From IMG/VR virus record IMGVR_UViG_3300017965_000005, positions 1-41,837 of that record: 41,837 bases of DNA, one strand, 5' to 3'. This document shows, in pieces, positions 17,668 to 41,635 of the stretch. Numbering within the stretch: position 1 is the first letter of the stretch; each line of letters starts with the position of its first letter. The notes below the pieces were generated by a model that saw nothing but the letters and a program-made list of their open reading frames with translations, searched no databases and was not told the DNA's origin. The DNA comes from a virus (lineage: Duplodnaviria > Caudoviricetes). Both the position numbers and the translations under genes were made by a program.

Positions 17668-17769
17668 GGGCTCCTCCCTGCGCCGCCATCCGGATGCGGG
17701 CCAGGATCGACTGCGCCGTCATCCCTTTCTGAAGCTCCTGACGGACAAACGTCTCCTGCTCCGGAGTGA
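17311..17769 (+). CDS. Hypothetical protein (152 aa), antisense within late operon
   Basis: SD GGAGG at 17301-17305; globular-looking core; last 110 nt overlap gene 17660..19069. Confidence 0.7.
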   Translation: MRFGRNVPVPEFDRPIRSTKEVELAAEVGVARAQYAAVSALAGIYREALRILAKGLLEAASGTLEGPDIEVLLEKAELIFWTEYDPDNPVHRGAFLEFEVFQGDRVWLATDFAQELLKHGLLPAPPSGCGPGSTAPSSLSEAPDGQTSPAPE

Positions 17770-19069: not shown

Positions 19070-19072
19070 GGC

Positions 19073-21744: not shown

Positions 21745-21882
21745 GCTCTCTCCTCAACTCGGCTCGTAGAGAATCCAGGCGACGTTGCCGGCATCGGCCG
21801 CGACGGCGCTCGTGATGGTGAAGGAGGTACCGACAACCCGGGCCGTGTTGGCGAGGGCGCCGACAACCCCCACGGCGTTTGA
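20953..21882 (+). CDS. Hypothetical protein (309 aa), wholly overlapped by late genes
   Basis: SD GGAGGT; helical N-domain and coiled coil ILRLANRVRDLE..RIEELE..LEAVLR. Confidence 0.65.
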   Translation: MKDRDDIEQGWSEATEGLAGDLLDILDGVTANIRLRHLARLFYREGWEDKALKDFSRLLRRAMRDTKKEIQQPAPEAAPEEIERPLDGGAVDQGVAGPAPLGEAPLDERPEVEGVGGAGKLKSHSWSGGLYDFTANEHGPLLYGPLGENPPYPTVVLSGSYGALVNAEILRLANRVRDLEFQLAGEIMAHQGSKMVAEERIEELETRNHSVEASAEVICSLKDDLALRVGTLEAVLRTVASDLDPYAGFVAGPIVRGVLHRIDQALSSTRLVENPGDVAGIGRDGARDGEGGTDNPGRVGEGADNPHGV

Positions 21883-22536
21883 AAATGCATACACCCTGGT
21901 GTTGGCCGTCACGCTCGTGTTGGCCACCACCAGGAGGCCTGCCGCCATCACCCCCACGCCCATGCGGGCGTTCGCCCCCTCTTTGATCCGGAGGCCCGCC
22001 CCGGTCCGGGCAAGGATGTGGTTCCCGGAGGTGTCGTAGCGGGCCGCCTCGACGTTGTTCGTGCCGAGGACGAGGGGGGTGCTGTTCAAGGTCCCCACCG
22101 CGAGGCCGCTTCCGAGGGCCGTGCCACAGAAGCTCCAGGAGGCCGGGGTGAAGCCGAAGATCGTGGCGGCCGAGTAGGCCGAGCCGAAGACGATCAGCTC
22201 GGCGCGGCCTACGTTCGCCGCCACGCGGAGACGGGCGTCGGCGCTGGTACCGGTCGAGACGTTCTGGACCACGGCGATCGTCGCGGCGTTCTGGTCGACG
22301 TGGACGTCGAGGGGCTGCGTCGGGGAGGCTCCGACCCCGAGCCGCTGGTCGTTCAAGGTCGTCGAGACGATGGCCTGGCCGCCGGAGCGGCCGGCCTGAA
22401 GGACGGCGCCCCCGGTCGCCCCGGTCTCCAGGTTCTGGATGTCCCTTTCCGCCTGCCGGAAATTGTGATCCCACCAGGACTGTACCTGGGAAAGATCGAA
22501 GAGCTTCCCGAGAAGGCGGAAGCGGCCGGCACTCAC
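21754..22536 (-). CDS. Tail fibre/spike-like protein (260 aa)
   Basis: SD GGAGGT, GTGA coupling; RLGVGASPTQPLDV and PLVLGTNNVEAARY fibre-type repeats. Confidence 0.75.
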   Translation of the reverse strand: MSAGRFRLLGKLFDLSQVQSWWDHNFRQAERDIQNLETGATGGAVLQAGRSGGQAIVSTTLNDQRLGVGASPTQPLDVHVDQNAATIAVVQNVSTGTSADARLRVAANVGRAELIVFGSAYSAATIFGFTPASWSFCGTALGSGLAVGTLNSTPLVLGTNNVEAARYDTSGNHILARTGAGLRIKEGANARMGVGVMAAGLLVVANTSVTANTRVYAFSNAVGVVGALANTARVVGTSFTITSAVAADAGNVAWILYEPS

Positions 22537-24185: not shown

Positions 24186-24207
24186 GGATTCTCCAGGATC
24201 AAAAGCA

Positions 24208-24717
24208 TCAAACCGTTACCCATGTACCGGTCTGAGTTGAAGCTGCCCACATATTTGTGTTGACGTATTCCAGGACGATATAGCTGCCCTTGGTTGATGA
24301 CTTGACTATGCCACCAGCCAACGAAGCGACGCTGCCGGCGTAGATGACGTGCGATCCCTGGGCCTGAACAGTCAGCTCGTCGGTCCCCAGAATGACGAAG
24401 GCGTACCAAGCCCCGGGAGCCGGAGCAGCCGGCAGGGTGACTTCATCACTGCCGCCGCCCACAATGATCGAGACAGTCCTGCCAATATCCGCGGCGGCGA
24501 GGGTGATGCCACCGGCGCCCGCCCGACGCGCCCTGAGAGCACCAGAGAGGGCGTTCGCATCGTCGATCAAGACGCCTGTCGCTTGCACTGTCGCGCCGCC
24601 AGTCCCATCTGCGCGGAGAATGGCATTGTCGGTCGAGCCCGTCGAGCCGCCGATGCCGCTCCCGCTGCCCCCACCGGCGAGGCCAGGTGGCGTCTCGCCG
24701 CCCCAGAAGAACCTCAC
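24208..24717 (-). CDS. Minor structural/fibre-like protein (169 aa)
   Basis: GTGA coupling; GSTDNAILRADGTGG and VTLPAAP..G..Y fibre motifs. Confidence 0.7.
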   Translation of the reverse strand: MRFFWGGETPPGLAGGGSGSGIGGSTGSTDNAILRADGTGGATVQATGVLIDDANALSGALRARRAGAGGITLAAADIGRTVSIIVGGGSDEVTLPAAPAPGAWYAFVILGTDELTVQAQGSHVIYAGSVASLAGGIVKSSTKGSYIVLEYVNTNMWAASTQTGTWVTV

Positions 24718-25061
24718 GAGATCGCCGCCTTTCGGCAGGAGACAATCACCCAGCAGGCGGTCGCGTTGAAGAACGAGAGCACCTGCCCCGGGGCAACCGA
24801 GAAGCTCTCACCCTGCATGACAGGCTCGGCCGCCGTGCCGTTCGTGACCGCCGCGCTGGGAGCGGCGGCGGTCGTTCCGGAGGCGTTCACGTAGAGGAGG
24901 CCGGCGGAGTACTTGACCCGAATGTGGTTGACTCCGGTCGGTACCGTGAAGGCACCGGCCGTCCCAGGGGCCGTGTTCAGGTCGACGACCTGGTTGTACT
25001 TCGAAACCGGAGGAGTGTCGGCCTGCGTCCTCCGGTTGATCGCAACGATCTCAGCAGCCAT
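24714..25061 (-). CDS. Small structural protein (115 aa)
   Basis: SD AGGAGG; beta-rich. Confidence 0.75.
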   Translation of the reverse strand: MAAEIVAINRRTQADTPPVSKYNQVVDLNTAPGTAGAFTVPTGVNHIRVKYSAGLLYVNASGTTAAAPSAAVTNGTAAEPVMQGESFSVAPGQVLSFFNATACWVIVSCRKAAIS

Positions 25062-25070
25062 TCTACCCTC

Positions 25071-25799
25071 CTACTCGTGCGTCCAGTACCGGTTGCCCCA
25101 GAGGCGCCGGTCGTCGGTTTCGTTGCCTTCCACGCCCGTCCAGGCCGCGCGGGCCTGGCCGGAGGGCTTGACGTGCTGCCGGCGCTCCTCGAAGAGAGAG
25201 AAGAGAGCCTCGTCTCCCGAGACCTTGGCAAAGCCGGCGCGGCCCTGGTCCTGGAAGAGCGGGGTCTTGTAGAAGATCTCCAGGGTCTTGTGCTTCAGGG
25301 CTTCGAGGCCGGCGTCGAACCAGTCGTTGGTCTGGGTCGTCGAGGCTGTCGTGATGAGGACCCCGTCCGCCGTGTTCCGGCGGGCGTCCTTCGTGTAGTC
25401 GAGGTAGAGGACGAGGGCGCTGTTCGGCGGCGGCCCGAGGTAGAGCTTGCGGTCGTGCCAGGAGCGGCCCCGCGGGTACATCGTCGAGACCTCGTCCATC
25501 CAGAAGCGGAGCTCGTCCATGCTGACCTTGTTGATCTCGATCGGCTGCGACCCCACCTTGTAGTAGAGCCGCCGGACCTCCAGAAGGTCCTTGGGAAATC
25601 CGGTAGTCGTGCTGTCGTAGGTCGCCTGGCTGGCGACTGTCGTGAAGCTCGCCTCGTCCTCGGTGAATGTGGTCTTCTCCTTCGAGAGGAAGGTGAGGGC
25701 CTCGACGATCGACTGCTTGAGGATCGTCGAGGTCTTCGAGGTCTTCACGCTAATCTGCGCATAGAGCAGATCATGCAAAGATGTAAACGTCTCAGCCAT
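25071..25799 (-). CDS. Head-to-tail adaptor (T7 gp11/P22 gp4-like)
   Basis: Size, synteny, FPKDLLEVRRL..YPR..LYLGPPP..LYLDY pattern. Confidence 0.75.
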   Translation of the reverse strand: MAETFTSLHDLLYAQISVKTSKTSTILKQSIVEALTFLSKEKTTFTEDEASFTTVASQATYDSTTTGFPKDLLEVRRLYYKVGSQPIEINKVSMDELRFWMDEVSTMYPRGRSWHDRKLYLGPPPNSALVLYLDYTKDARRNTADGVLITTASTTQTNDWFDAGLEALKHKTLEIFYKTPLFQDQGRAGFAKVSGDEALFSLFEERRQHVKPSGQARAAWTGVEGNETDDRRLWGNRYWTHE

Positions 25800-26451
25800 A
25801 ATTCACCATCCAGAAGGAGGATGAATGTTCAAAGCACTGGATCTGTTCTGTTGTGCTGGCGGAGCCTCGGAGGGCCTCCGCCGCGCAGGCTTCGAAGTGA
25901 CCGGCGTCGACATCCGGCCGCAGCCCCACTACTGCGGGGACACCTTCGTGCAAGCCGACGCCCTGGAGTTTCCACTGGAAGGGTACGATCTCATCTGGGC
26001 GAGCCCTCCGTGCCAGGCATTCACGGCCTACAAACGACGACCATCCCATGTCGCGCCGTGCCAGAACCTGATCCCGGCGGTGCGGGAGCGCCTCGCTGGT
26101 TTGCCCGCGTTGACGATCATCGAGAACGTCCCTGGAGCACCGCTGCGCCGCAACTTGATGCTCTGCGGATCGATGTTCGATCTGAGCGTTCGCCGCCACC
26201 GCCTCTTCGAGCTCAGCTTCGAAGCCATCCAACCGACGTGTCGGCACCAGGATCAGGCGCCGCGATTCCCGCCGGCCTCGAACCGTCACAGCCTCCGGCG
26301 TACGGTCGAGGTAGGTGTCTGGAGGATTCCCCTGGAGGTACAGCGGGCCGCCATGGGGATCGACTGGATGACCCGCGAAGAGCTCTCGCAGGCCATCCCG
26401 CCCGCCTACAGCGAGCACATCGGTCGATGCGCCATGGCGGCTCTTGATCAC
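25792..26451 (-). CDS. Bridge ORF 4 (219 aa), antisense to the methyltransferase
   Basis: SD GGAGGT 8 nt before GTG overlapping upstream stop (GTGA); stop overlaps adaptor ATG (ATGGCTGA). Confidence 0.5.
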   Translation of the reverse strand: MIKSRHGASTDVLAVGGRDGLRELFAGHPVDPHGGPLYLQGNPPDTYLDRTPEAVTVRGRRESRRLILVPTRRLDGFEAELEEAVAANAQIEHRSAEHQVAAQRCSRDVLDDRQRGQTSEALPHRRDQVLARRDMGWSSFVGRECLARRARPDEIVPFQWKLQGVGLHEGVPAVVGLRPDVDAGHFEACAAEALRGSASTTEQIQCFEHSSSFWMVNYG

Positions 26452-26469
26452 CGGCCAGGACCTCCGTAG
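25825..26469 (+). CDS. Short DNA (cytosine-5) methyltransferase
   Basis: Motif I DLFCCAGG, IV WASPPCQ, VI IIENV, X-like QAIPPAYSEHIG; SD AAGGAGG. Confidence 0.88.
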   Translation: MFKALDLFCCAGGASEGLRRAGFEVTGVDIRPQPHYCGDTFVQADALEFPLEGYDLIWASPPCQAFTAYKRRPSHVAPCQNLIPAVRERLAGLPALTIIENVPGAPLRRNLMLCGSMFDLSVRRHRLFELSFEAIQPTCRHQDQAPRFPPASNRHSLRRTVEVGVWRIPLEVQRAAMGIDWMTREELSQAIPPAYSEHIGRCAMAALDHRPGPP

Positions 26470-26960
26470 GCGACCCACTCGTCGACCCCGGCGGCCGGCG
26501 TGGTCGCCGCCGCCAGGACCTTGTAGCCGAGGACGGCCCAGCCGCCCGGGTTGGGGACCTGGAGGCCGGCTCCGCCGGTCCCCAGGATGATCGACTCGAC
26601 CGCGGTGACCGCGGCGGAGAAAGGGGCGTTAGCGGAGGCGTCGTAGACGGTGACCTCGCCCGCCACGGCGCCCAAGGCGTCGTAGTACCACATGGTGAGG
26701 TCCATGTTCAGGGTGGGGCCACCGGTGTCGTGGTCGGCCGTGCGGAGGCGCTCGATGCGGTTGAGCCAGCCGCCGCCCGGGAGAGCCATGAGGGCGACCC
26801 GGTCGCCGATGTCGTCGACCGAGGTCGCGGCGATGGTCAAGCTGACCTGCTCCGACCAGAATGCGTCGCGCTTGTAGGGGCGCGACGCGATCGGGCTGAA
26901 GCCCTGGGTGTTCGAGGTGTCGGCCTGGAAAAGGCTGGAGTATGCGGTTGCGGCAGCCAT
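26448..26960 (-). CDS. Capsid decoration/cement-like protein (170 aa)
   Basis: 3 nt after capsid stop; SD GGAGG; beta-sandwich-like. Confidence 0.7.
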   Translation of the reverse strand: MAAATAYSSLFQADTSNTQGFSPIASRPYKRDAFWSEQVSLTIAATSVDDIGDRVALMALPGGGWLNRIERLRTADHDTGGPTLNMDLTMWYYDALGAVAGEVTVYDASANAPFSAAVTAVESIILGTGGAGLQVPNPGGWAVLGYKVLAAATTPAAGVDEWVAYGGPGR

Positions 26961-26963
26961 GGC

Positions 26964-28145
26964 TTAAGCCTCCGTGGTCGCTTCCGTGTAGGAGTGATAG
27001 ATGGCCGAGCCGAAGCTCTCGCCGTCGATGTGGAGGCGCTTGAAACCGAGGCCGGTGTGGTACTTGATCGACTCCCGCTCGTGCTCCATGTCCGAGGTGT
27101 AGTCGACGTGGTTGCCGTTCTCGTAGCCCTTCATCCACCAGAGCAGCGCGGCATGGCTCCCGAGGATGATGTTGGGCTGGCAGTTGGCGACGATGCCGGT
27201 CGCCGGAGTCGTCGCGTTGGCCGCGACGCCGTCCGCGGCGAGGGGCAGCCACTCGGCCGCCACGTAGATGACGTCGTTGACCGACTTGATTGCCGTGGTC
27301 TTCGAGAGGGCGCTGTTGTCGAAGCCCATCCCGCCGGCCATCTCGGCCAGGTCGATCTTCTCGAACTTCGAATCCGGGTCCGAGAACTTGATCTGGTTGA
27401 TCCCCTCCTGCGTGGTGACGCAGAGGAAGCCGGAGCCGAAGGCGGCGAGGTTCATCTTGGTCAGGGGCCACTTGACGCCGAAGCGCTTGGTGGTGAGCTT
27501 GGCGATGAAGCGTGCGACCCCGACGTCCGAGAGGATCGCCGAGCTGTCGGCGGCTACGGCGGCAGTCGTGGTGAGCGGGGTCCCGGAACCCGAGTCGGCG
27601 AAGCCGATGTGCCGGGTGTCATAGTGCGTCACCTGGTTCATCCCGGACATCTTGTGGTCCGGGTAGTGGGAGAGGCCGGTGAAGGTCGTCCCCGAATTGT
27701 AGCGGGTGTCACCGGCCAACTGGCGGTAGAAGCTCCGCTCCATCCATACCGCCGTCGAGTCGTTGGCGTTCTTCCACTGCTCGTCTTCGAGGTTGCGCTC
27801 CGTGCGCTGCTGGTCGCCGGTGCCGTGAGTCAGGTAGAAGTCGTAAGGGGAGCAGTACTCGCAGAGGATGCGGAACTTCAGGGGTTCCGGGGCCGAGCGC
27901 TCGACGCCGATGACCGGCTCGTTGCGGCTCTTGGGGACCGGGTTGTTGTCGGTCAGGCGCATGAACAGGAACTCCTGCTCCAGGCCGGGCCGGCCGCCTT
28001 CGTCGTCGATCTCGATGATGGGGGCCTGAGACTTCCGATCCCCCCTGAGGAAGAAGAGGAGCTGAGGAAGCTCGCTCTCCCAGGTGGTTGTGTAGGAATT
28101 GAGCACCCTCGCCCATTGTGAGGATGCGGGAACGGTCGGTGCCAT
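26964..28145 (-). CDS. Major capsid protein (393 aa)
   Basis: Position after portal/scaffold, size, own promoter; fold not verified. Confidence 0.8.
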   Translation of the reverse strand: MAPTVPASSQWARVLNSYTTTWESELPQLLFFLRGDRKSQAPIIEIDDEGGRPGLEQEFLFMRLTDNNPVPKSRNEPVIGVERSAPEPLKFRILCEYCSPYDFYLTHGTGDQQRTERNLEDEQWKNANDSTAVWMERSFYRQLAGDTRYNSGTTFTGLSHYPDHKMSGMNQVTHYDTRHIGFADSGSGTPLTTTAAVAADSSAILSDVGVARFIAKLTTKRFGVKWPLTKMNLAAFGSGFLCVTTQEGINQIKFSDPDSKFEKIDLAEMAGGMGFDNSALSKTTAIKSVNDVIYVAAEWLPLAADGVAANATTPATGIVANCQPNIILGSHAALLWWMKGYENGNHVDYTSDMEHERESIKYHTGLGFKRLHIDGESFGSAIYHSYTEATTEA

Positions 28146-28318
28146 GCGGCTTCTCTCCGTGTCTCCCGGCGCGTGGCCGGGAGGTTCCGTCAGTTCTCGG
28201 AGCTGTCGGGGAGGGCCTCCGTACCCCTCAGGCGCGTGGCCTGGGAGCCCGTTTTCCTTGGAGGGAGGAGCCCGGGGCGCGGGGCCTCTGCCGCATGGCA
28301 GGTAAGCTACGTGTTACC

Positions 28319-28348
28319 AGGATACACTGGTACCAAGAAGGGAGTCAA
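28319..28348 (-). promoter_or_regulatory. Sigma70-like capsid operon promoter
   Basis: TTGACT-18-TATCCT; -10 lies within GGTACC-N10-GGTAAC inverted repeat. Confidence 0.65.
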
Positions 28349-28351
28349 CCA

Positions 28352-28636
28352 TTGTCTCGTCCAGCTTGTCGAAGCTTTGAGGGCTGCCGTGGGGATGGGT
28401 GGGAGTACGACCTGTGCGATTCAGGGTCCGGCCACACAGTCTACTGTGGCTGTGCGGCCGGTGTCGATCTGATGCGCGCGGAGACCGCTACGCCGACCGC
28501 CGCCCCAGGTCCCGAATCTGACCCAGAAGCCCCCGCTGCACCTTCGGCCAGTCCGATCCCCAGCGACGGGCCCCCTCTTTCTGGACCTCGATCATCCCCT
28601 GACGCTGCCCCTTCTCGGACAGGGTCTTCGTCATGA
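28352..28636 (+). CDS. Small Cys-rich protein, antisense between scaffold and capsid
   Basis: SD AAGGGAG before TTG; CRGDGW..VYCGCAAG; tail overlaps scaffold gene by 149 nt. Confidence 0.5.
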   Translation: MSRPACRSFEGCRGDGWEYDLCDSGSGHTVYCGCAAGVDLMRAETATPTAAPGPESDPEAPAAPSASPIPSDGPPLSGPRSSPDAAPSRTGSSS

Positions 28637-29645
28637 AGGAGAGAAAGTTTCCGTCTCGGGGGGCCTTGCCGTTCGTGCGGGCGGCTGGGGGCGGGGCGGC
28701 GCCCCCCTCTTCGGCAGAGGCGATGAATTCTCGCTGCTCCTGAACACGGGTCGCCGCCGGCCGGGGGGCCGCGGCGCCCGCTTCGACCGGCTGCACGATG
28801 CCGAGCTGGTGCGCCCACTGGAGGGCGGTCATCATCTGCTGCCGGCCGAGCATCTCGACGAGCGCGGCCGGGTTCGTGCCGGTCTGTTCGGCGAGGTCGG
28901 TCATGGCGAGCATCGAGGAACGGGCAAAAGCCTGCGCCTTCGGGCCATCACCGAAGAGCATGCGGCCCTGCTGGTAGCAGGTGTCCGCAATCACCCCCTT
29001 GTAGAAGTTGTACTCGCCGGCCCGGCGGGCGTCGCCGCCGACGTAGACCCGTTCAGCCTCCCGCACCCACTCCGCCCGCTCCGCGGCCCATTCCCCGAAC
29101 TGCTCCTCGCGCTCCCGCGACTCGGTCTCACGCTGGAGGTGTTCCTCGCGCTCGGCCTTCGCCTCGCGGAGGGGGGCGAGCTGCTCCTCGAAGGAGGACT
29201 TGAGGCCGGCAACCTGCTTCTCCCACCAGGCCTTCTGGTCGAGGTCGAAGTCGGGCTCTTCCTCGGCGCCCCCCCTGCCGGGGGCGCCGATCCCCTCGAT
29301 CTTCTTGCCGAGGTCGTCGAGCTTCTGCTCGAACAGCTCCTGAGCCCTGCGCTCCGCGGCCCGCTGGCGCCCCATCTCCTTGCGCTGCTTCCAGGTGAGA
29401 TTCGGGTCGGTGCGCCAGGCATCATTCGCCCTCGCCCACCGATCCGTCTCCCAGCTCTCGCGCGGAGCCGGCTCCGGGGTGGTTTTTTCGGCCGCTGGCG
29501 TGACCTCTGCGGGCCGATCAGCTCCGCCCCCCTCCGCCAGCCCTGCCCTGGACGCTGCTTCCTCTAGGCGGCTCTCTGCGCGGGAAATCTCGGCCTCCGC
29601 GCCACCTCCCGGGTCGCTTCCGCTCTCGACTTCGAAATCAGCCAC
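28488..29645 (-). CDS. Capsid scaffolding protein (385 aa)
   Basis: SD GGAGGTG; acidic disordered N-terminus, coiled coils; between portal and capsid. Confidence 0.75.
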   Translation of the reverse strand: MADFEVESGSDPGGGAEAEISRAESRLEEAASRAGLAEGGGADRPAEVTPAAEKTTPEPAPRESWETDRWARANDAWRTDPNLTWKQRKEMGRQRAAERRAQELFEQKLDDLGKKIEGIGAPGRGGAEEEPDFDLDQKAWWEKQVAGLKSSFEEQLAPLREAKAEREEHLQRETESREREEQFGEWAAERAEWVREAERVYVGGDARRAGEYNFYKGVIADTCYQQGRMLFGDGPKAQAFARSSMLAMTDLAEQTGTNPAALVEMLGRQQMMTALQWAHQLGIVQPVEAGAAAPRPAATRVQEQREFIASAEEGGAAPPPAARTNGKAPRDGNFLSFMTKTLSEKGQRQGMIEVQKEGARRWGSDWPKVQRGLLGQIRDLGRRSA

Positions 29646-29808
29646 GATTCACCTCCGGACAAGAGAAAGATCTACCGAGTCCGCCACTAGTGTCCTTATG
29701 ACCTTGGCGAATATCTCCTCCGCAACCCTTGCACCTGTATGGACAGGAGGCAGAACCGTAGTGCAGGCCGCCGCAAAACGAGCAATCTTCGATCGGGTTC
29801 GCATTCAT
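29638..29808 (-). CDS. 56-aa zinc-finger-like protein (not in ORF track)
   Basis: Hand-translated MNANPIEDCSFCGGLHYGSASCPYRCKGCGG..; ATGA overlap with portal stop and GTGGCTGA overlap with scaffold start. Confidence 0.65.
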   Translation of the reverse strand: MNANPIEDCSFCGGLHYGSASCPYRCKGCGGDIRQGHKDTSGGLGRSFSCPEVNRG

Positions 29809-31970
29809 TGGACCTGGTCTCCCTGCCCCTCCCCCATAGCTCCGGCGCCGGGGCCGAGCATCATCTGCTGGAGCTGGTTGAAGAATTGAGCCTGCTGCTC
29901 AGGCGGCAGGCCCTGGAAATACTGGATTGCCCCCTGCTCGGACTGTTGCTGCTCCTGCATGGTCCAGTCCTCCTCCGCCTGGCGGAGGAGGTCCTGCGCG
30001 GCATCCTCGGGCAAGGGGGAGTACTTGAGGACCATCCGGGCGACGATCTTCGGGCTCACACCCATCTCCTTGATCATCGAAGTCGCCATGCCATGGGTCG
30101 TGAACCAGTCGGCAATCGCGAACCTCTGGTTCGGGGTCGTCGCTCCGACGTCGGCCCGGATGTCGTAGTCCAGAAGGTCCATCTGCTTGAGGAGGCGGCC
30201 GGGGGTCGCCGGCACCATCTGGCCGGTCTTCCGGTCGAGGATCATCCGAGGGGCCTGCGAGCCCTGCTCATCCGCCTCCACGGTCACTCCGTCGATCGGG
30301 GCGACCTCGCCCAGGATGCGGTCGATCTCCCCGGCCGGCATGTGCCGGATGACGTAGGCGGCCATCAGAGACCCGAGGTTCGTGACGAACTGGATGCGCG
30401 GCTTGCGGAGCGGCAGGAGCCGCGCCGCGCCGGTCTGCTGGAGGTTCGCGACGTAGGCATTCGACCTGTCTCCCTGGCCGGTGCCCTGGAGCCACTCATT
30501 GACCCCGGTCACCCGGCCCAGGAGGTCGAGGCAGAAGAAAAAGATGTCCTTGAAGTCCGGGGGAATCTGGGCGTTGGTGTTCGCCACGATCCCGCCCGGC
30601 GCGCCCGGCATGAGCTGCGCCGGGGTGTGGTGCCAGTAGCCTGGTATGGCGTTCTTGGTCCGGAACTCCTCCATCCATTCCGGAGTCGCCGAGTCCGGGA
30701 CGTGGCCGCCGCCCTTGTTGGCGCGGGAGACGGTGTCGACCCAGCTCCGAAGAGCCTTCATCATGTACTGGATCACATCGAAGCAGACGCGGCCGAGGCC
30801 GAAGAAGCGGATGCGATCCTCCTCGGGCTTCTTCCAGACCAGGCCGGTGACGGACTTGACGGGGAACTGATCGACGCCGATCCGCTTCCGGTCGAGGAGG
30901 TAGGCCGCGCCGCGGCTGTGGCCACCGGCCGAGGCGACAAAGGTCGCCTGGTAGTGGCAGTGGCCGATATAGGTATCGACCGACTCCTCGTCCCAGGTAG
31001 GCGGCTGCGGAGGCTGCTCCTCGGAGGCCATTCCCATGGAGACGGCCATCGCGGAGCGCTCGGCGTAGGCCTCCAGCTCCTGCTCGTATTCGAGCTGGTA
31101 CTGTTCCCGGGTGGACTCGAACTCCTCCGTCGGCTCGTTCCGGTACTCGTCCGTCTTCGGATCGATGAAGGAGGTCCTGGAGTGCGAGCTCCGGTAGTAA
31201 AGGGTGTCGATGTCGACCGTCTTCCGGTGCCGGCGGCGCGAGCGGCTGGCGGAGCCCGGAGTGGGCGGTCCAGGGATCGGAGTCGTATCGAGGATCGCGC
31301 TCCCGCCGGCGCGGGAGCGCTCCTTGAGCGCCTCCGTGTGGGTTGGGTAGAGGGCGAGGGCGTTGTCGAGGAGCATCGAGGGCTCGCGGATCACGAAGTA
31401 GTCCGCATCGGCGTAGTTCATTTCCGTTGCGTCGGGGTCCGGCTTCACCCTCCAAGTCTGGAGGGCCTTGATGACCGGGCGGACGGGGCGCTGGTTCGTC
31501 GCGATGAAGCCGATCGCGTAGCCGCGGCCGGTCACCCCGCAGTCCTGGACCGCATCCCAGACGTGGACGTCGGCGTCACAGGCCGACCAGACCTTCCGCA
31601 CCACCTTGGTCATCCAGTCGGCGCACGCCTGGTCGACAGGACCGAGATCCTCGCCGAAGAAGGCGGGCTCGACCTTCTGGGACATCTCGGAACCGAGGAA
31701 GGTGTGCATGATCGCCTGGAAGATGGCGACGTCGGTCGAGACCACCTCGGGGTTGGCGGCGTAGAACTGCTGGTCATCATCCGAGGCCGAGATCCCGGCG
31801 TAGAGCCGCCAGTGCCGGGCGTCCTCGCGGACGGCCGGCCCCTCCTCGGCCTCGGCGTCGTCGAGCGCATTCCGATAGAAGTTGACCAGCTCATCGTCGG
31901 ACATCTCCTGTCCGTGAATCGGCTCGTCGGTATCCTCCCCGGCGCCCGGGAGACGGCTCAGATCAGACAT
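29805..31970 (-). CDS. Portal protein (P22-like, ~721 aa)
   Basis: Follows TerL; CGVTGRGY, VKPDPDA..DADY, FFGLGRV, VTGVNEWLQG, YDIRADVG, Gln-rich tail; alternative start 31985. Confidence 0.88.
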   Translation of the reverse strand: MSDLSRLPGAGEDTDEPIHGQEMSDDELVNFYRNALDDAEAEEGPAVREDARHWRLYAGISASDDDQQFYAANPEVVSTDVAIFQAIMHTFLGSEMSQKVEPAFFGEDLGPVDQACADWMTKVVRKVWSACDADVHVWDAVQDCGVTGRGYAIGFIATNQRPVRPVIKALQTWRVKPDPDATEMNYADADYFVIREPSMLLDNALALYPTHTEALKERSRAGGSAILDTTPIPGPPTPGSASRSRRRHRKTVDIDTLYYRSSHSRTSFIDPKTDEYRNEPTEEFESTREQYQLEYEQELEAYAERSAMAVSMGMASEEQPPQPPTWDEESVDTYIGHCHYQATFVASAGGHSRGAAYLLDRKRIGVDQFPVKSVTGLVWKKPEEDRIRFFGLGRVCFDVIQYMMKALRSWVDTVSRANKGGGHVPDSATPEWMEEFRTKNAIPGYWHHTPAQLMPGAPGGIVANTNAQIPPDFKDIFFFCLDLLGRVTGVNEWLQGTGQGDRSNAYVANLQQTGAARLLPLRKPRIQFVTNLGSLMAAYVIRHMPAGEIDRILGEVAPIDGVTVEADEQGSQAPRMILDRKTGQMVPATPGRLLKQMDLLDYDIRADVGATTPNQRFAIADWFTTHGMATSMIKEMGVSPKIVARMVLKYSPLPEDAAQDLLRQAEEDWTMQEQQQSEQGAIQYFQGLPPEQQAQFFNQLQQMMLGPGAGAMGEGQGDQVQ

Positions 31971-32115
31971 CAGGCCCCCAGACACGATGAATCACATCGC
32001 CCCTGATAAAGATCCGGACCAGCTCCGTTCCGTAGAGCCTCGTCCGCCACTTCGACGGGGACCAATCGACCGCGAAGATCCTCATCCGGTTGGTCGTTTC
32101 TACGCCACTCGCCAT
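31963..32115 (-). CDS. 50-aa hypothetical protein (not in ORF track)
   Basis: SD GGAGG; starts inside terL 3' end; stop overlaps portal ATG (ATGTCTGA); MASGVETTNRMRIFAVDWSPSKWRTRLYG.. Confidence 0.5.
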   Translation of the reverse strand: MASGVETTNRMRIFAVDWSPSKWRTRLYGTELVRIFIRGDVIHRVWGPDV

Positions 32116-33998
32116 GACGGCCTCCCCTTGCCTTGCGTGCGCTTCCTCTGCTTCATCGCGAGGAGCTTCCCGTGGCGATCGTTGTAGTCGCCGGACTTCC
32201 CGCCCGCCCCGCCCCAGGCGGGCGGGCCGGCGAAGAGGTGCTTCAGCTCATCGAGCGAATGCCAGCTGAAGGTGTCTAGCATGTCGTCGACGGCATCGGG
32301 CTTCTCGCCCTCCGCCTCGTTCCAGTCGAGGTACTCGTCATCGAGGAACTGGACGATGGTGTCGCGCTCGTCCTCTTCGAGGCCGGGGCCGTAGTGGCTG
32401 CCGTGGCCGAAGCCGGAGCCCGCGGCCACCCAGGCGCCGTTCACCTTGACCATCTCGATCGCGTCCTGTGAGCTGGTGAGCCAGTCGGCCGGCGGGGCCG
32501 GAAGCCAGATGAGGCCGTTCCGGAACTCCTGGTCGAGGATGCGGATGCGGGAGACCTTCGTCTTTGAGGCGACGCCCTTTGGCAGCTCCGCGGACCCCAG
32601 GGCGCGGATGCGACAGCGGTATTTCCGCTTCCCCTCGGCGAGGAGGCGGGCAAGCTCGCGCTTCGCCCCCGACACCCAGGCATCGGCGCCGCCAGTCTCG
32701 AACCAGATCTGAGCCGGGTCCTTGGAGAAGCTCTGCCACTTCCCGACGAGGCCGCCGTCCGCCACGTTCGGCTTCCAGACATGGCGCTCCGAGGTGGCCG
32801 ACTCCCAAGAAGGGGGTCCAAAGAGGCAGTCAAGGGTGTCCGATTGGCCCATCTTCTCGCGGACCAGATCGAGGACGTAGCGCTTCCGGTCGGGGCGGAT
32901 GGCGACGACCTGGATGACGGTGTAGTCGCTCTCCTCGCCGCCCTTGGCGTAGTCGACGATCATGTGGATGTTCGAGCCTACGGCCCAATGCTCCGGCGGC
33001 TCCACATAGAAGTGGAGGTCCTCGAAGCGGAAGCTCTTCCGGTGCGGGTCGCGGATGAGGAGATCGAACTGAGCCTCGGCGATCGCCTTGTCCTGGATCG
33101 CGCGGTACTGCTCGTCGAGAAACTTGAGGGTCCGGAGGACTGGCTTGCGTTCCTTGCGGCCAGAAGGGTGGAAAGAGATGCCGCCAACGAAATAGCCCTT
33201 CGCCTTTCGCTGGACGACCGGGTCTCGCCGGCCGTAGGGGGTACCGATGAACCAGATCGGCGTGTTGCCGCCACGGAGCGGGACCAGGTTGTCGAGCATG
33301 ACGTCGACCCTTCGGGCCGTGCGCTTCGACTCGACGGTATCCATGCCGACCGGGTCCTCGACCAGGATCCAGGTAGGGTGAATGCCCTGGATGGCGGTCT
33401 TGATGCCGTGGACGGAGACGGAGGGGTCGCGGGGGCCGTGCTTCCTCTTGACCGTGATCCGGGTGTCGGAGCATTCGGCGAGTTCGCGAAACTGCGGGGC
33501 GATCCGCTTGAGGCGGTCGCCTTGCATGACCTTCGCGATGTCCGAGCCGACGAAGCCCTCGCCGACCTGGTCGATCTTGTGGGTCGGGATGGCGATCGTC
33601 TCCATCGGATCTCGATAGAGAATCCAGACCGTGCCGTTGACGGTGATGACGGTCGACTTGAAGTGATGGCGAGCCCACCAGAAGAGGAGGAACGACGTCC
33701 GCGCCTCGATCGCCTTCTGGACCTCGCGGATGCGAGCGAAGAGCCAAGGGTGCTCGATCCACAGACGCCCCTTCATCGGATGCCCTGGATCTGCGATCCG
33801 GAAGTCGCCGAGCGGCGTACAGCGCTTCGTGAACCAGAAGAAGTCAACCCGGCAGATGTACGCCTCGCGGAGGAGGGCGAGCTTCGGATCTCTCTCGTAG
33901 AGGAGGTCGAGCTCGGCTTCGAGCTGGCGATAGACCTTGTGGGTCGGGGTCGGCGGGAGCCGCCAGGCGAACTGGCGGCCGGTGGTCCGCAGGGTCAC
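32100..33998 (-). CDS. terL: Terminase large subunit (~632 aa)
   Basis: Walker A variant WARHHFKST, Walker B ILVEDP, IGTPY coupling motif, nuclease IVDYA..SDYT..DDMLDT; GTGA coupling to terS. Confidence 0.92.
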   Translation of the reverse strand: MTLRTTGRQFAWRLPPTPTHKVYRQLEAELDLLYERDPKLALLREAYICRVDFFWFTKRCTPLGDFRIADPGHPMKGRLWIEHPWLFARIREVQKAIEARTSFLLFWWARHHFKSTVITVNGTVWILYRDPMETIAIPTHKIDQVGEGFVGSDIAKVMQGDRLKRIAPQFRELAECSDTRITVKRKHGPRDPSVSVHGIKTAIQGIHPTWILVEDPVGMDTVESKRTARRVDVMLDNLVPLRGGNTPIWFIGTPYGRRDPVVQRKAKGYFVGGISFHPSGRKERKPVLRTLKFLDEQYRAIQDKAIAEAQFDLLIRDPHRKSFRFEDLHFYVEPPEHWAVGSNIHMIVDYAKGGEESDYTVIQVVAIRPDRKRYVLDLVREKMGQSDTLDCLFGPPSWESATSERHVWKPNVADGGLVGKWQSFSKDPAQIWFETGGADAWVSGAKRELARLLAEGKRKYRCRIRALGSAELPKGVASKTKVSRIRILDQEFRNGLIWLPAPPADWLTSSQDAIEMVKVNGAWVAAGSGFGHGSHYGPGLEEDERDTIVQFLDDEYLDWNEAEGEKPDAVDDMLDTFSWHSLDELKHLFAGPPAWGGAGGKSGDYNDRHGKLLAMKQRKRTQGKGRPSWRVA

Positions 33999-34705
33999 GC
34001 AATCCCCGTGGAGGCCGGGAGCTTCTTGATGTGGCCCTTGAACCAGTCCTGCTGTTGCTCGATGAGCTTCCGGTCCCCGTCTTCGAGTTGGAACTCGTGG
34101 ACGATCTTCGCCTTCGGATTCCATTTGTCGGGGTTGCGCGTACGGAGGGACTGGAGGGCGAGGGAGTTGTCCTGCGACCGCGAGCCCGAGAGGGCCGCGG
34201 TGTCGAGCTTGTCTTCCATGCGGACGGTGATCCGGTGGTTGAGTTGGCTGAAGCGGCGCGTCGCCCGCTTGTCACCGCCGTTGATCGCGTCCATCAGGGC
34301 GTCGAAACTGACCTGCCATCCCTGGGAAGCAACCTCCTGAAAGGCGCCGTAGCGGTCAATCTTCCCCTCGTCGACCTGCTTCTCGATCGCGGCGAGATAG
34401 GCGACGAGAACCTCGGGAATCTCCTCGTCTTCGATCTCCGGCAGGATAATCTCGGGCTCCAGCGCTCGCTCCGCGACCGCGTTCTCGCGGTGCATCCGGC
34501 GGATCGCTGCCTCCTCGTCGAGGAAGTCCTGGTTGACCGACTCGATCCCCTGCTGGAGGCAGAGCTTGTGCGCCTTTTTCCAGCCGGAGAGGGTTCCAAC
34601 CGCGATGCCAGCGCGCTCGCACACCCTCCAGGCGACGGTTGATGCTCCGGGCTCCTGGAGCATCGCCTGGAGGACGTCGAGGTACTTCCGCTGAGCCGGC
34701 GTCAC
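33995..34705 (-). CDS. terS: Terminase small subunit
   Basis: N-terminal HTH CERAGIAVGTLSGWKK; LRTRNPDKWNPK motif; directly upstream of terL. Confidence 0.75.
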   Translation of the reverse strand: MTPAQRKYLDVLQAMLQEPGASTVAWRVCERAGIAVGTLSGWKKAHKLCLQQGIESVNQDFLDEEAAIRRMHRENAVAERALEPEIILPEIEDEEIPEVLVAYLAAIEKQVDEGKIDRYGAFQEVASQGWQVSFDALMDAINGGDKRATRRFSQLNHRITVRMEDKLDTAALSGSRSQDNSLALQSLRTRNPDKWNPKAKIVHEFQLEDGDRKLIEQQQDWFKGHIKKLPASTGIA

Positions 34706-35520
34706 CCCCGGTAGGCCCCCATCTGCCCGAATCCGAACGGGTTCGGCCCACCGGAGCCACCGTACTGCGGTGGACCGCCCCTGCCCGTGAACGACCCGTA
34801 GAGGTCGGCGAGCGATCCGGGATTGAAGCTCCCCTGCCGCATGCCCTGGAGGCGCTGCTGGAGGGCGATCTGCGGCGGTACCTGCCCGCCGGGCTCGGCG
34901 CCCGGCGGAGGGAGGCCGGGGCCGGGCGAACCAGGGCTCATGCCCCCGGGTCCGGCGACCGACATGTCAGGGCCGCCCGTGGAGACGGTCGGGCCGCCCG
35001 CTGGCTGCCCGCCTGGCGCACCAGGGCCGTACTGCTGGATGATCTGCTGCCGGAAGTTCGGATCGGTCGCCATACGACTTGCCACGGCCTCCTGCGGGTC
35101 ACGTCCGGCGGCGCGGGCCGTCTCCCGCATCCGCGGGGGGAGCATGGAGTAGGGGTCGTCCTCGACCCGCGGGCCGGCGTTCAGCTCGGCACCCGGGGGA
35201 AGCGGCATCTCCCCGCCCGTGGTGGGCGGGCCGGAGGGGCCGCTCGTCGCTTGATCCATGCCTCCCGAAGGCGGCATGACGCGGACACCGCGAGGCAGAC
35301 CGCCGCCGGTTCCGCCGGGGCTCATCCCGCCCCCGGGCTCCCGCATGCCGCGGGGCGCCGGGCCGCCGCCGGGCTGGAAAGGCATGCGAAGCCTTCGCTT
35401 CGCCTCCTCCATCTTGGCGATCATCGGTACCGCCTTGAGCTGGGGCTGGCTGGGGTTGGGGGCCGCGGCCGACTGGCCGCTGCGGCGGCCCCCCTGGTAG
35501 GACGTGGCATCCATGGCCAT
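34702..35520 (-). CDS. Gly/Pro/Met/Gln-rich low-complexity protein (272 aa)
   Basis: SD AAGGGA, 3 nt after upstream stop, GTGA overlap with terS. Confidence 0.7.
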   Translation of the reverse strand: MAMDATSYQGGRRSGQSAAAPNPSQPQLKAVPMIAKMEEAKRRLRMPFQPGGGPAPRGMREPGGGMSPGGTGGGLPRGVRVMPPSGGMDQATSGPSGPPTTGGEMPLPPGAELNAGPRVEDDPYSMLPPRMRETARAAGRDPQEAVASRMATDPNFRQQIIQQYGPGAPGGQPAGGPTVSTGGPDMSVAGPGGMSPGSPGPGLPPPGAEPGGQVPPQIALQQRLQGMRQGSFNPGSLADLYGSFTGRGGPPQYGGSGGPNPFGFGQMGAYRG

Positions 35521-35523
35521 GGC

Positions 35524-36105
35524 CTATCCCTTCTTCGAGTCCCAGCCGCGGGACATTTCGGTCTTCTTGATCGGCTTGGAGCCCGGGATCTTCTTGCCGG
35601 CCTCGCCGCGGGCGCTCTTCGGACCCGGCTCCGGGAGAATCCCGCCGGGCTGCTTGACGACCTTGGACATGAGCTTCCTGCCTTTCGTGGTAGAGCCGGG
35701 AGGACGCCCCCGGCGTGGTTTCTCGGTGGACTCGCCGGCCGGCTTTCCGGCCGGCCGCGCGACGATCGCTTGGAGGGCGGCGACCAGGTCCTTCTGGACG
35801 AACCTGTCGAAGCGAAGCCAGATCGGAGTACGGCCGGCGACCGCGATGCGGAGGTACCGGCGGTGCTCGCCGGTGTTCGGGAGGCGGAGGCCGCCCGCGG
35901 AGTAGAAGCGGGGGACGTCGAAGGAGACTTCCCGCACGAGGCGGGCACGGAGCGATGGTAGCTGAAGGGACTGGAGGGCGAGACGGGCATGACCGCGGAT
36001 TGTTCCGTGCATCACCGTCGCCGTGATCCGCTCCGACCCGCCGCCCTCTTTGGGCCAGCCAAAGATCACGCGGGACCCTGTCTCTGGAATCTGGACGGTC
36101 GCCAT
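35524..36105 (-). CDS. First late gene: globular N-domain, AT-hook, basic tail (193 aa)
   Basis: ATG 6 nt after -10 box (leaderless); KPRRGRPPG AT-hook. Confidence 0.7.
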   Translation of the reverse strand: MATVQIPETGSRVIFGWPKEGGGSERITATVMHGTIRGHARLALQSLQLPSLRARLVREVSFDVPRFYSAGGLRLPNTGEHRRYLRIAVAGRTPIWLRFDRFVQKDLVAALQAIVARPAGKPAGESTEKPRRGRPPGSTTKGRKLMSKVVKQPGGILPEPGPKSARGEAGKKIPGSKPIKKTEMSRGWDSKKG

Positions 36106-36111
36106 ATTACC

Positions 36112-36140
36112 AGAGTACATAGGTAACAAGGTGTCGTCAA
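36112..36140 (-). promoter_or_regulatory. Sigma70-like late promoter, leaderless transcript
   Basis: TTGACG-17-TACTCT-6-ATG; -10 lies within TTACC-N10-GGTAA inverted repeat. Confidence 0.7.
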
Positions 36141-36142
36141 GG

Positions 36143-36660
36143 GGCGCCCTTGCGCTGGAGCGCCGGGCGCCGATACCCCCGCCTTCCCTGCTCAGGACCC
36201 TTCCTGGGTGGGTGGCTGCCCCTCGCTGTTCGCCCCGACCCCTGCGACGGCCAGGCTCCCGGCGAGCTGGACCGCGCCGGCCGCCTCAAGCGGCCCGGCG
36301 CCTGAGCATAGGACCAGGACGTATGCGGGATGCCGGATCGAACTACCGGCCCGGAGCCTGGATTTCTGCTCGCCGGCCCGGGGTGCGAGCCCCGGGTGCT
36401 GCTGTTGGCCGGGGGTCTCACCCGGTCCTCCTCGCTCTTTTCCCCCTCGCCCTCTCGGGGTCAACGGGGCCGGGAGCTGCTTTTCTTGACCGGGACGGTA
36501 GACGAGGAGGACGAGGCTGTGGTAGGATTGCTCCGTTCGCCACAGTCTTTCTTCGCTCCCGAGCCCGCGCCGTCACGCGGGCTCAACTCTTTGTAGGTCA
36601 TCTGCACCACAAAAGCATCCGCCGTTCTGGCGACCCGGTCAAGGTGTCTGTTTTCAGACA
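36143..36660 (-). ncRNA. Candidate large structured RNA A (~520 nt)
   Basis: Many 7-10 bp complementary pairs incl. crossing ones; GNRA loops and A-rich linkers on minus strand; extended -10 TGnTACCAT at 36685-36677. Confidence 0.55.
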
Positions 36661-36668
36661 GTGCGACA

Positions 36669-36685
36669 TGTTACCGATGGTAACA
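36669..36685. promoter_or_regulatory. Palindrome TGTTACC-GAT-GGTAACA at the strand-divergence point
   Basis: Perfect 7-bp inverted repeat in AT-rich region; same GTTACC half-site as late promoters. Confidence 0.6.
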
Positions 36686-36769
36686 GCGGTATGTATGCTT
36701 TTTCTTACATCTTGACTGGAGACAGGATTTGCTCTCAATTTATGGTTGTCGCTGCAAAGGAGGCTTGAT

Positions 36770-36991
36770 ATGGAGACCAAGCAGTGCAACAAGTGCAAGG
36801 AGTTCAAGGCGTTGCTTTTCTTCGGAAAGAGAAGGGCCAAGAAGGACGGTCTTTACGAGACTTGCAGGGATTGCATGAAGGACGTTCCGAGCAGGGTATC
36901 GGCGATGAATCGCAACAAGCTCAAGTCGCTGATCAAGAGGCGCGACATGATGGGCGCTCAACGCTGGAAAGATGGTGGCGGCGGCGCCTGA
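36770..36991 (+). CDS. Cys4 zinc-finger protein (73 aa)
   Basis: SD AAGGAGG; KQCNKC..F..KDGL..CRDC, like N-terminal Zn domains of phage HNH/EndoVII proteins but no nuclease domain. Confidence 0.75.
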   Translation: METKQCNKCKEFKALLFFGKRRAKKDGLYETCRDCMKDVPSRVSAMNRNKLKSLIKRRDMMGAQRWKDGGGGA

Positions 36992-37003
36992 AGCGCCCGC
37001 CGC

Positions 37004-37194: not shown

Positions 37195-37917
37195 ATGAAG
37201 AGAAGTGAGTTCGAATCCAAGGTCCGTAGCTGCACGGCAGAGCCCTGGACGGACACATCATACGGAGCCGATCAAGTCCTTGCTCTGGTCGCTCAAGTCG
37301 GTGTCACCTGGGACCCGGAGGAGCCGGAAGCGCTGTGGGAAGCTCCAGAAACCGTGGATGTATATGCCACCCGAATACTCATTGACGGGACCATCGAATA
37401 CCTTTCTTCGCTTAGGGGATGGCTGCCCATGGATTGCCCGACTACTCGCGAGCTTGCCCGCCGACTCCTCGCTGAGCGGGCGGAGAAGGCGAAGCAGGAT
37501 GTCATGCAGCACAGCGTCCTGGCCGGACTCGCCGCCGACAAGGATCACGTCACGGACGGCAGCTCCTGCTGGTGCAATCCGGTTACGGAGAAACCGGGGA
37601 TCGAAGATGTCCCGGACGGCGATATGGCGGCGGTTTCGGGGACCGCCGCCTGGATCGAGAGGGAGAGGGCGTGCCGGGACCTGGACGGAGAAGTTCGGAG
37701 CGAGGAGGCTGCCGGTCGCCGCCGGATCGCGAAAATACTCAAGGCCAGCAGGTCGTCGTACTGGTACGCGAGACACATCGGGAAGGTGTTCGAGGTCGAG
37801 TTAGTGGAGGCGGAGGGGTTATTCAAGGGGAGTGCGCGCGTTGCCGGTTATTGTGGCGGTCACTATGTTCAACCCGAGGACATGGAGTACCTGGAATTCC
37901 TGGATCTAGGCTCTTGA
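37195..37917 (+). CDS. Hypothetical mosaic protein (240 aa)
   Basis: SD AAAGGAG; domain shared with 8016..8906; H..CWCNP motif. Confidence 0.8.
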   Translation: MKRSEFESKVRSCTAEPWTDTSYGADQVLALVAQVGVTWDPEEPEALWEAPETVDVYATRILIDGTIEYLSSLRGWLPMDCPTTRELARRLLAERAEKAKQDVMQHSVLAGLAADKDHVTDGSSCWCNPVTEKPGIEDVPDGDMAAVSGTAAWIERERACRDLDGEVRSEEAAGRRRIAKILKASRSSYWYARHIGKVFEVELVEAEGLFKGSARVAGYCGGHYVQPEDMEYLEFLDLGS

Positions 37918-37943
37918 CATTCTAGGATCTCTCATCCTAGAAT
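37914..37943 (+). promoter_or_regulatory. Near-consensus sigma70 promoter with overlapping operator
   Basis: TTGACA-18-TAGAAT; perfect inverted repeat ATTCTAGGAT-N5-ATCCTAGAAT at 37919-37943. Confidence 0.8.
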
Positions 37944-37947
37944 TGTT

Positions 37948-40422: not shown

Positions 40423-40816
40423 GGCCAGGACGCCACCAGAGGGCACCTGAGCCACGAACGCCTACCACCCCTCCCTACCTCACGAGCCCGCCCCTCCGAT
40501 CCCCGTAAAAGCCAGCTTAGCGCGAAACAGGCCCATACAGGCCGCCGGCGCCTGAAGCGCCCGGCGGCTGAGTCCTGTCCCTCTGCTACCGCCTCGTCAT
40601 TGTCCTCTTTGGGCTACGACATGCCTGAGCGACCCGCATATTGAAAGCGGGGACTCCCCCCTCTCCGCCGCCACCCGCCCTCGACCGGCATACCCCCCCC
40701 TTACACACAGGTGTGCTTGAATAACTCTATGGCTTTGTAGGAAAGACATGGTGCTCATGCAGTGAGCATGACTTGAATAATAGTTGAACTAGGGGGAGGC
40801 CATAGAGGGGAAGAGG

Positions 40817-40887
40817 GGATGGGTCAGAGATTGACCCACTACAGAGGGGAGGGCGGTGGTGTGGTGGATGGGTCAAAGATTGACCCA
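40817..40887. repeat. Two copies of a 22-bp palindromic repeat GGATGGGTCA(G/A)AGATTGACCCA
   Basis: 40817-40838 and 40866-40887, one mismatch, each TGGGTCA-N5-TGACCCA. Confidence 0.85.
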
Positions 40888-41635
40888 TGGGTGGGACAAA
40901 ATGTCGCAGCCTCTCTGGTGTGCTGGTGCTGTAGTACACCGAGCTGCTCCTTCCCCTCCTCCCTCCTCTCCCCCTTCCGGGTTCAACCATTCCTCAACTC
41001 CTGCGCAGTGAGTGGGTATCCGGGTAAGATCGTTGAATCTCGTTGGCTCCGTGGTATTGCGTTCCTCTGTCGCACGTGCGACACTCATCTTGTCAGGGGC
41101 GGGGGAGGGCGGGCGGGGCGGCGGTGACGGGTTGACATGGAGAGCGAAGGGCGGGAGCGGACCGGGCGCGAGAGCGCAGAGGTCCGCAAGCCTCCCGAGG
41201 TGCTCCGCGAGCTTCGGCCCGCGTCCGGTTGTTTCGGTTCCTGCCGGGGCGTGTGTGGTGCGTGGTTCCCTGGCACGGGGCGGTTCTGGTCTATGCGCGT
41301 TCCTCACTGCGCGGGCGCTCAGGCGCCGCGCAGGAGAGCACGAAAGGCGGGACGGAGCGGCGGGTCTCCCCGGTAAGAGTGGAGCGAGTTGTCCAAGCGG
41401 CAGCGACTCCCCAGGACGGCAGGAGCCGAGTGCATCCCTCTCCGGAGGCTTGCATCCTGCTACTTCTTTCCGGCGCGAGTCCCCTTGACCGGGGCGTTGT
41501 CAAGTGCCAGTAAAACCGCGACAGTGCGTAAGGGTGTGTGGAGGGGTGAGCGGCGACCGGTTGATTCCAGGTCACAAAGAAGAGGCGGCAGGATGGAACC
41601 CTCCGGACCAAACCTCAACAGAAAGGAACCCTCTC

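Follow-up and report, generated by a model that had tools for sequence, protein, structure and literature searches.

Positions 36143–36660 of a caudoviral genome fragment (IMG/VR record IMGVR_UViG_3300017965_000005) are a conserved, non-coding element, and this element very probably encodes a structured RNA of some kind. The RNA is probably real and represents a new family of a known general kind; its function can only be inferred. The original prediction of a novel non-coding RNA stands, as the element has no Rfam match, is conserved and is non-coding. Of the two roles proposed with it, that of a packaging RNA is weakened by the present data, and antitermination is possible but also weakened.

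Genomic setting and predicted architecture

The window is the whole record, one linear piece of 41,837 nt with a CheckV completeness of about 53 per cent. The virion genes form a minus-strand block that runs from 36105 downward and comprises about 25 kb of late genes, among them a portal (phrog_156) and an SU10-type adaptor. Small early-type ORFs lie on the plus strand from about 36770, and the candidate RNA fills the gap between these divergent blocks. The main features are as follows.

26964–28145, minus: major capsid gene, N4-gp56-like by predicted structure
28312–28348, minus: twin promoter/operator of the capsid gene, sigma-70-like, passing the promoter scanner, about 170 nt before the gene
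32100–34001, minus: large terminase (terL), phrog_38, E 2e-26, of lambda-gpA type over residues 89–550
33995–34705, minus: terS-like ORF, weak HTH match under the cut-off
35524–36105, minus: first late ORF, 193 aa, no family
36106–36140, minus: promoter-like site before the first late gene, with its −35 at 36140–35, 17-nt spacer, −10 at 36117–12
36143–36660, minus: candidate large non-coding RNA of about 520 nt, or up to about 530 nt with a start near 36670
36668–36685, minus: putative RNA promoter, extended −10 at 36685–36677 or alternative −10 at 36673–36668

The helicase of this phage is at most 29 per cent identical to that of any annotated phage, and no match to terL or the portal was obtained among annotated phages. 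The first late protein matched no PHROG, Pfam or PDB family, and its matches in the Atlas, from a low-confidence model, were weak, unnamed and PH-like only. Its C-terminal 48 residues (35524–35670, minus) form a lysine-rich peptide that begins at an internal Met and is a separate 48-aa protein (P0023) in a relative. The ORF ahead of the terS-like gene (34702–35520, minus; 272 aa) matches no family and, with 21 per cent Gly and 17 per cent Pro, is probably disordered. The stretch had been placed directly upstream of the packaging genes; in fact, two to three small ORFs without a known family intervene, and the start of the terS-like ORF is about 1.4 kb away, with a separate promoter-like site between. 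On the other side of the stretch, an 81-aa ORF (36746–36991, plus) matched only the N-terminal part of endonuclease VII/HNH families, the nuclease domain being apparently missing. Further into the late block, a tail protein (21754–22551, minus) carries a C-terminal domain of K1-lyase type (Pfam PF24146).

The predicted parts of the RNA are listed below in 5′ to 3′ order of the minus strand; X followed by a number denotes a contig from a related phage.

36645–36660, minus: 5′ hairpin, 6 bp, AAAA loop
36425–36643, minus: 5′ domain, three mutually crossing helices around internal hairpins
36643–34/36494–85, minus: helix P1, 10 bp, pair probability 1.0
36588–36633, minus: variable sub-domain, two small hairpins, altered in X2 by 11 substitutions and 2 indels
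36561–55/36477–71, minus: helix PK2, 7 bp
36512–03/36434–25, minus: helix PK3, 10 bp
36189–36376, minus: 3′ domain, three mutually crossing helices
36376–68/36267–59, minus: helix B, 9 bp, a G–U keeping the pairing in X6 and X11
36361–53/36259–51, minus: helix A, 9 bp, reduced to 6 bp in X11
36308–01/36196–89, minus: helix C, 8 bp, unchanged among the relatives' differences listed
36272–36301, strand not assigned: variable GC-rich hairpin, with similar stem-loops elsewhere in the genome
36143–36171, minus: GC-rich hairpin at the 3′ end, 7 + 3 bp, no U-tract

On the minus strand the arms follow one another as P1, PK2, PK3, P1′, PK2′, PK3′ in the 5′ domain and as B, A, C, B′, A′, C′ in the 3′ domain. 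Since this order is identical in the two domains, every helix crosses its two domain mates. Triple-crossing helices are rare in natural RNA. The predicted fold into two such domains is supported in outline, not pair by pair.

All six long-range pairings that had been proposed are exact Watson–Crick complements, the arms 36251–59 and 36259–67 having base 36259 in common. Pair-by-pair checks likewise confirmed the stems of the hairpins at 36377–96, 36517–45, 36561–84, 36645–60 and 36275–300, and both stems that close GNRA loops on the minus strand. The A-rich linkers are also there: outside the helices the minus strand has 80 A versus 42 U. The T-loop-like GUUCGAU is found at 36343 on the minus strand, but one of its bases (36340) is lost in X11. 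Helix C could be extended by 36185–88/36310–13 and 36180–83/36318–21. Several arms have equally long alternative partners (e.g. 36255–63/36469–77), and no palindrome of at least 8 nt was found in the stretch. Two further pairings were considered and rejected: an extra pseudoknot, 36478–84/36611–17, has two of its seven pairs broken on the minus strand in X2, and the stem 36306–10/36322–26 is disrupted in X6 and X11.

Perfect helices of at least 9 bp number seven in the stretch versus 0.98 ± 1.0 in shuffled sequences, none of 100 shuffles reaching seven. For helices of at least 10 bp the corresponding figures are two versus 0.26, with 4 of 100 shuffles reaching two. Among 404 other 518-nt windows of this GC-rich genome, two reach seven such helices, both over one spot in the helicase gene. 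Nested folding is also better than in shuffled sequences, with a z-score of −2.99 on the minus strand (1 of 100 shuffles); the plus strand scores better still (−4.10, 0 of 100). The nested signal is carried by the 5′ domain (5′ 183 nt; z = −5.64, 0 of 200 shuffles). With pseudoknots left out of account, the 3′ part (283 nt) folds no better than is usual (z = −0.74, 43 of 200).

GC-rich stem-loops with similar 5-nt loops are present at 10697–10721, 17851–17867, 36279–36295, 36980–37000 and 40545–40565. X11 has an exact copy of the 36272–36301 30-mer about 2.3 kb from its own copy of the RNA, which differs at that place.

Conservation in related phages

The stretch is present in 12 runs (11 soil metagenomes and one of drinking water), of which seven were compared here. 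No RNA run is among the 12, which weighs neither way on transcription. The relatives were compared as contigs assembled from these public soil and water runs and aligned onto the stretch, and the identity of the stretch in related phages is 93–97 per cent.

X2 is a single contig over 35900–36900, with 37 substitutions in a complete list. Only 3 of 445 positions differ within 36143–36587, 11 substitutions fall in 36593–36633 and five in the promoter region. In the adjacent gene 17 of 206 positions differ, 15 of the 17 at third codon positions. Divergence is also low outside the RNA, 1 of 140 positions differing within 36761–36900. The helices P1, PK2 and PK3 are unchanged in X2, and its two indels cancel out. 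The change in 36588–36633 is one event common to the close relatives X2, X4 and X5. Read by hand, the X2 hairpin at 36590–36613 has seven substitutions and an insertion and still forms a 7-bp stem, in a shifted register.

X6 and X11 each have 29 differences, X6 over 36100–36587 (94% identity) and X11 over 36100–36498 (93%); positions for 22 of the 29 in each are among those listed, none beyond 36464. In X11 the 141 nt at 36499–36639 are replaced by 139 unlike letters, with both flanks kept and no difference in 36640–36661. As this interior of the 5′ domain is unaligned in X11 and the alignment of X6 ends at 36587, conservation of P1, PK2 and PK3 is seen only in close relatives. X7 diverges past 36654, and X12 keeps eight bases at and beside the PK3 arm behind an altered linker. 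In the last hairpin of the RNA the outer stem has no substitution among the differences listed; the loop varies in X6 and X11, which have 8–10 additional bases in or near this hairpin.

The absence of a credible coding sequence, noted in the original prediction, is borne out by indels of +8, +10, +1 and −1 in X6, X11 and X12. Since these break the frame, long overlapping ORFs are ruled out. One such ORF, of 230 aa on the plus strand (36023–36715), has no PHROG match and is frameshifted in X6, X11 and X12.

A terL 70 per cent identical and a first late protein 46 per cent identical to those of the window each come from a single 8148-nt contig, linked to the X11 contig by identical length only. 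If these are one contig, the RNA (93% in X11) appears to be far more conserved than the neighbouring proteins.

Wider searches added little to this set. Four protein scans of viral contigs (with terL, a terL alignment, a first-gene alignment and a distant homologue) gave no relatives. Four DNA-pattern scans of viral contigs gave 16, 69, 55 and 30 loci, none alike beyond about 25 nt around the seed. Some of these loci had an apparent partner 226 nt upstream, which alignment showed to belong to a protein-coding family, presumably baseplate, and they were discarded. A metagenome scan matched only the window's own contig, genome contigs gave no match, and blastn against phages and plasmids returned only short matches within unrelated sequence. 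Such homologue searches may miss records that are very close, and diverged homologues escape exact seeds; the family may thus be wider.

The distribution of changes over the predicted structure was examined with the originally proposed helices as a fixed model (193 of 518 positions paired, the 36275–300 hairpin included). Of 45 variable sites, 6 fall in helices versus 14.4 expected with base classes stratified (P = 0.002; 1 of 517 circular shifts), a figure inflated because 36465–36660 is covered by X2 alone. Where X2, X6 and X11 all have listed differences, the avoidance is not significant (6 of 34, P = 0.18; 23 of 321 shifts). For X2 alone the count is 0 of 14 (14 of 517 shifts), and X11 alone shows no avoidance (P = 0.57, with the 36275–300 hairpin left out).

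Covariation in the long-range stems had been sought as support, and none of the six shows a two-sided compensatory change. These helices are simply unchanged, as any strong sequence constraint would make them. One-sided changes that keep or repair pairs occur in helix B (X6, X11), in a hairpin at 36197–209 (X7, X11, X12) and in the helix C extension (X6, X11). X6, read by hand, retains a hairpin at 36274–36301 despite indels. In X11 two helix A pairs are disrupted, as is the end pair in the hairpin at 36377–96.

Wobble asymmetry is tied, with four sites favouring the minus strand and four the plus strand, and the variable hairpin of X6, read by hand, has its GNRA loop on the plus strand. The minus strand is preferred because the A-rich linkers, the GNRA loops of the window and the sole inward promoter-like sequence are all on it; on these sequence features the RNA is likely transcribed from the minus strand.

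Comparison with known RNA families

Rfam covariance models gave no match at gathering score in the window, and with E up to 10 the region 35900–36900 gave five chance-level matches, none to a large ornate family. The RNA had been described as neither RNase P nor tmRNA, and this agrees with the lack of an Rfam match and with ARAGORN, which found no genes; no tRNA gene was found in the window. The conserved P4 motifs of RNase P are absent from both strands within two mismatches, as are the catalytic-core motifs of group I introns within two mismatches. The domain V motif of group II introns was found only as two-mismatch matches, with no Rfam match. The genes flanking the stretch diverge from it, unlike the interrupted host gene of an intron.

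In its size, phage-borne location, crossing complements that may form several pseudoknots, lack of an ORF and variable segment between conserved parts, the RNA resembles ROOL, which averages 581 nt in the descriptions given in parts of PMC5737381 and bioRxiv 10.1101/2024.12.08.627333. It differs from ROOL in the lack of a model match, in the absence of tRNA genes, beside which ROOL and GOLLD often lie, from this roughly 53%-complete record and in its position between its own and the late-gene promoter-like sites; unlike ROOL, with its few invariant bases, its sequence is far more conserved among relatives. Compared with GOLLD, it is shorter than most such RNAs, has no model match and lies in no tRNA island. 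According to sections of bioRxiv 10.1101/2024.12.08.627333, assembly of ROOL and GOLLD monomers uses A-minor contacts and kissing loops; one pairing of ROOL, detected by covariation and at first taken for tertiary, turned out to be a kissing contact between molecules. The same sections describe raiA as a monomer, so that size alone is no sign of assembly.

Like conAn2 and HK022 put, the RNA heads a very long operon, and the small protein encoded next belongs to no known family; portions of PMC8191782 give a precedent for a very long operon that opens with a large RNA element plus a small protein. It differs from these elements in the separate promoter-like site after the RNA, in the first protein having no Pfam match and in that no strong intrinsic terminators were found downstream. 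The phi29 pRNA, of 174 nt, is likewise a phage RNA with potential for intermolecular pairing; the present RNA is about three times longer, has no Rfam match and belongs to a phage with a canonical large terminase. Nothing naming this RNA was found in the literature searched. PMC10690425 reports 10,006 viral candidate RNAs; as far as the excerpted parts describe them, they are 29–151 nt long, and they could include a short piece of it. The candidate RNA lacks the tested features of ROOL, GOLLD, RNase P, tmRNA, group I and II introns and pRNA and belongs to none of them, and in size and build it is like the large ornate phage RNAs described in parts of PMC5737381.

Transcription unit and possible functions

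The extended −10 that had been proposed for the RNA (TG-T-TACCAT, 36685–36677) is present, but only at chance level, with one found versus 1.04 expected in the genome; a standard promoter scanner at its thresholds reports no promoter at the stretch. A 7-bp inverted repeat whose halves are 3 nt apart, a putative operator, overlaps the putative RNA promoter. At the other end of the RNA, the −35 of the first-late-gene site begins 2 nt past the last hairpin. The −10 of this site has three of six consensus bases and lies 6 nt from the ATG, a leaderless spacing, and no ribosome-binding site is evident. In two related proteins the upstream in-frame extensions read Y-[P/S]-G-N-M, which agrees with the −10-to-ATG spacing. 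The X6 and X11 differences listed here, where those near alignment ends may be unlisted, lie at 36130–34 and 36141–42, on both flanks of the −35 and none in it.

One and the same inverted repeat, its halves 10 nt apart, overlaps both the first-late-gene site and the twin capsid site. They have in common an 18-nt pattern that occurs at no third place, although the pattern was derived from these sites and its chance figure is no test. The 7-mer half-site occurs five times in the genome versus 0.81 expected (0 of 100 shuffles): two copies in the RNA promoter, one in each late promoter and one elsewhere. Between the twin site and the capsid start there is a GC-rich leader of about 170 nt with an 8-bp hairpin (28146–28311, minus). 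Given these promoter-like sites, the late genes are likely to be transcribed from promoters of their own, and the best reading of the RNA is that of a separate gene with related control. No U-tract terminator was found 3′ of the RNA, so transcription could still read through.

The reading that we prefer, tentatively and just short of calling it probable, is that of a stand-alone structural RNA of about 520 nt which works, by analogy, like ROOL and GOLLD. That the RNA stands alone, rather than being a leader, is favoured by the promoter-like site that starts 2 nt beyond its last hairpin and has a twin ahead of the capsid gene. Its own minus-strand promoter would yield a free-standing transcript, with a 3′ end at the last GC-rich hairpin produced by processing or by U-less termination, and the predicted two domains of three crossing helices would then form. 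Through the inverted-repeat half-site the RNA and the late genes may come under common control. The A-rich linkers, GNRA loops and long crossing helices fit the build of ROOL and GOLLD; on that analogy, the RNA would be abundant and would pair with its own copies. Some of the crossing helices may be formed between molecules, as three crossing helices of 7–10 bp are hard to close within one chain.

The same position, on the strand of the roughly 25 kb of late genes and directly ahead of them, would suit a cis-acting antiterminator or leader that heads the long late transcript and modifies RNA polymerase, as HK022 put or conAn2 does, perhaps with the first late protein as processivity factor. 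The missing U-tract at the 3′ end agrees with this, mutually exclusive helices could serve as a switch, and the pairing of a large RNA element with a small protein has the precedent cited above (parts of PMC8191782). We nevertheless consider it unlikely, because the first late and capsid genes have their own promoter-like sites and would not need read-through, the one directly after the RNA being conserved. Terminator-like sites in 17000–36200 number 15 versus 9.3 ± 3.5 in shuffled sequences, five of them on the minus strand and none strong; a terminator-like hairpin within the RNA itself (36633–19) is altered in X2, and no PHROG, Pfam or PDB match was obtained with the first late protein. A mosaic of smaller RNA modules (a variable 5′ domain, a conserved 3′ core and exchangeable hairpins), in which some long-range matches are due to chance and the identity partly to recent exchange between phages, is rather unlikely. 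It would account for the replaced 5′ interior of X11 and the alignment end at 36587 in X6, for the patchy divergence of X2, for the 3′ part without a nested folding signal and for the resemblance of the 36272–301 hairpin to dispersed stem-loops. Against it, the segment replaced in X11 is similar in size (139 versus 141 nt) with both flanks kept, X12 keeps the bases at and beside the PK3 arm behind its altered linker, and P1, PK2 and PK3 join the 5′ domain to 36425–36494.

An element acting as DNA, such as a packaging start, a replication origin or an operator array, might also be expected between divergent operons and upstream of a terS-like gene; in lambda-like phages, cos lies upstream of the terS gene. 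Inverted repeats work on either strand, and the wobble test of strand is tied, but crossing arms 50–150 nt apart are unexpected of double-stranded binding sites, as are linkers rich in purines on one strand and hairpins that re-form in a shifted register. The largest families in a genome-wide repeat listing include no direct-repeat array inside the stretch, and we regard a DNA-level element as improbable. A pRNA-like part of the packaging motor or procapsid is very improbable. Its location ahead of the packaging genes and crossing arms that could make intermolecular rings, as the loops of pRNA do in the account excerpted from PMC5066667, speak for it; the terminase speaks against it, being of lambda-gpA type over most of its length with a terS-like ORF before terL. 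In the same excerpts pRNA is reported only for, and needed only by, phi29-like phages, the large terminase being the equivalent of pRNA plus ATPase. A bolder proposal, which we hold to have little chance of being right, joins the two tandem triple-pseudoknot domains and the operator in common with virion genes into a self-assembling scaffold for head assembly or DNA packaging. The RNA, a new class of large RNA, would assemble with itself, with the basic peptide and with the Gly/Pro-rich protein encoded just downstream. If true, a phage that has an ordinary terminase would provide the first RNA linked to packaging outside the phi29 group.

Few RNA classes of such size and complexity are known in bacteria and phages, and their functions are mostly obscure. 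A new family with an unusual, repeated topology, in a small phage without tRNAs and between promoter-like sites that have a half-site in common with the capsid-gene promoter, would link an RNA of this type to one defined phase of infection. The candidate RNA lends itself to probing and cryo-EM; at present the narrow range in which it is known limits its value.

Other sequence features were noted elsewhere in the window. A strong promoter-like site (37915–37944, plus) lies under a 10-bp inverted repeat that is likely a second operator type. The early region contains a 30-nt direct repeat (188–217 and 615–644, 87% identical) with a hairpin before each copy. At 40819–40890, two nested inverted repeats of 7 and 9 bp with the same core lie beside purine- and pyrimidine-rich tracts, a possible origin or operator region.
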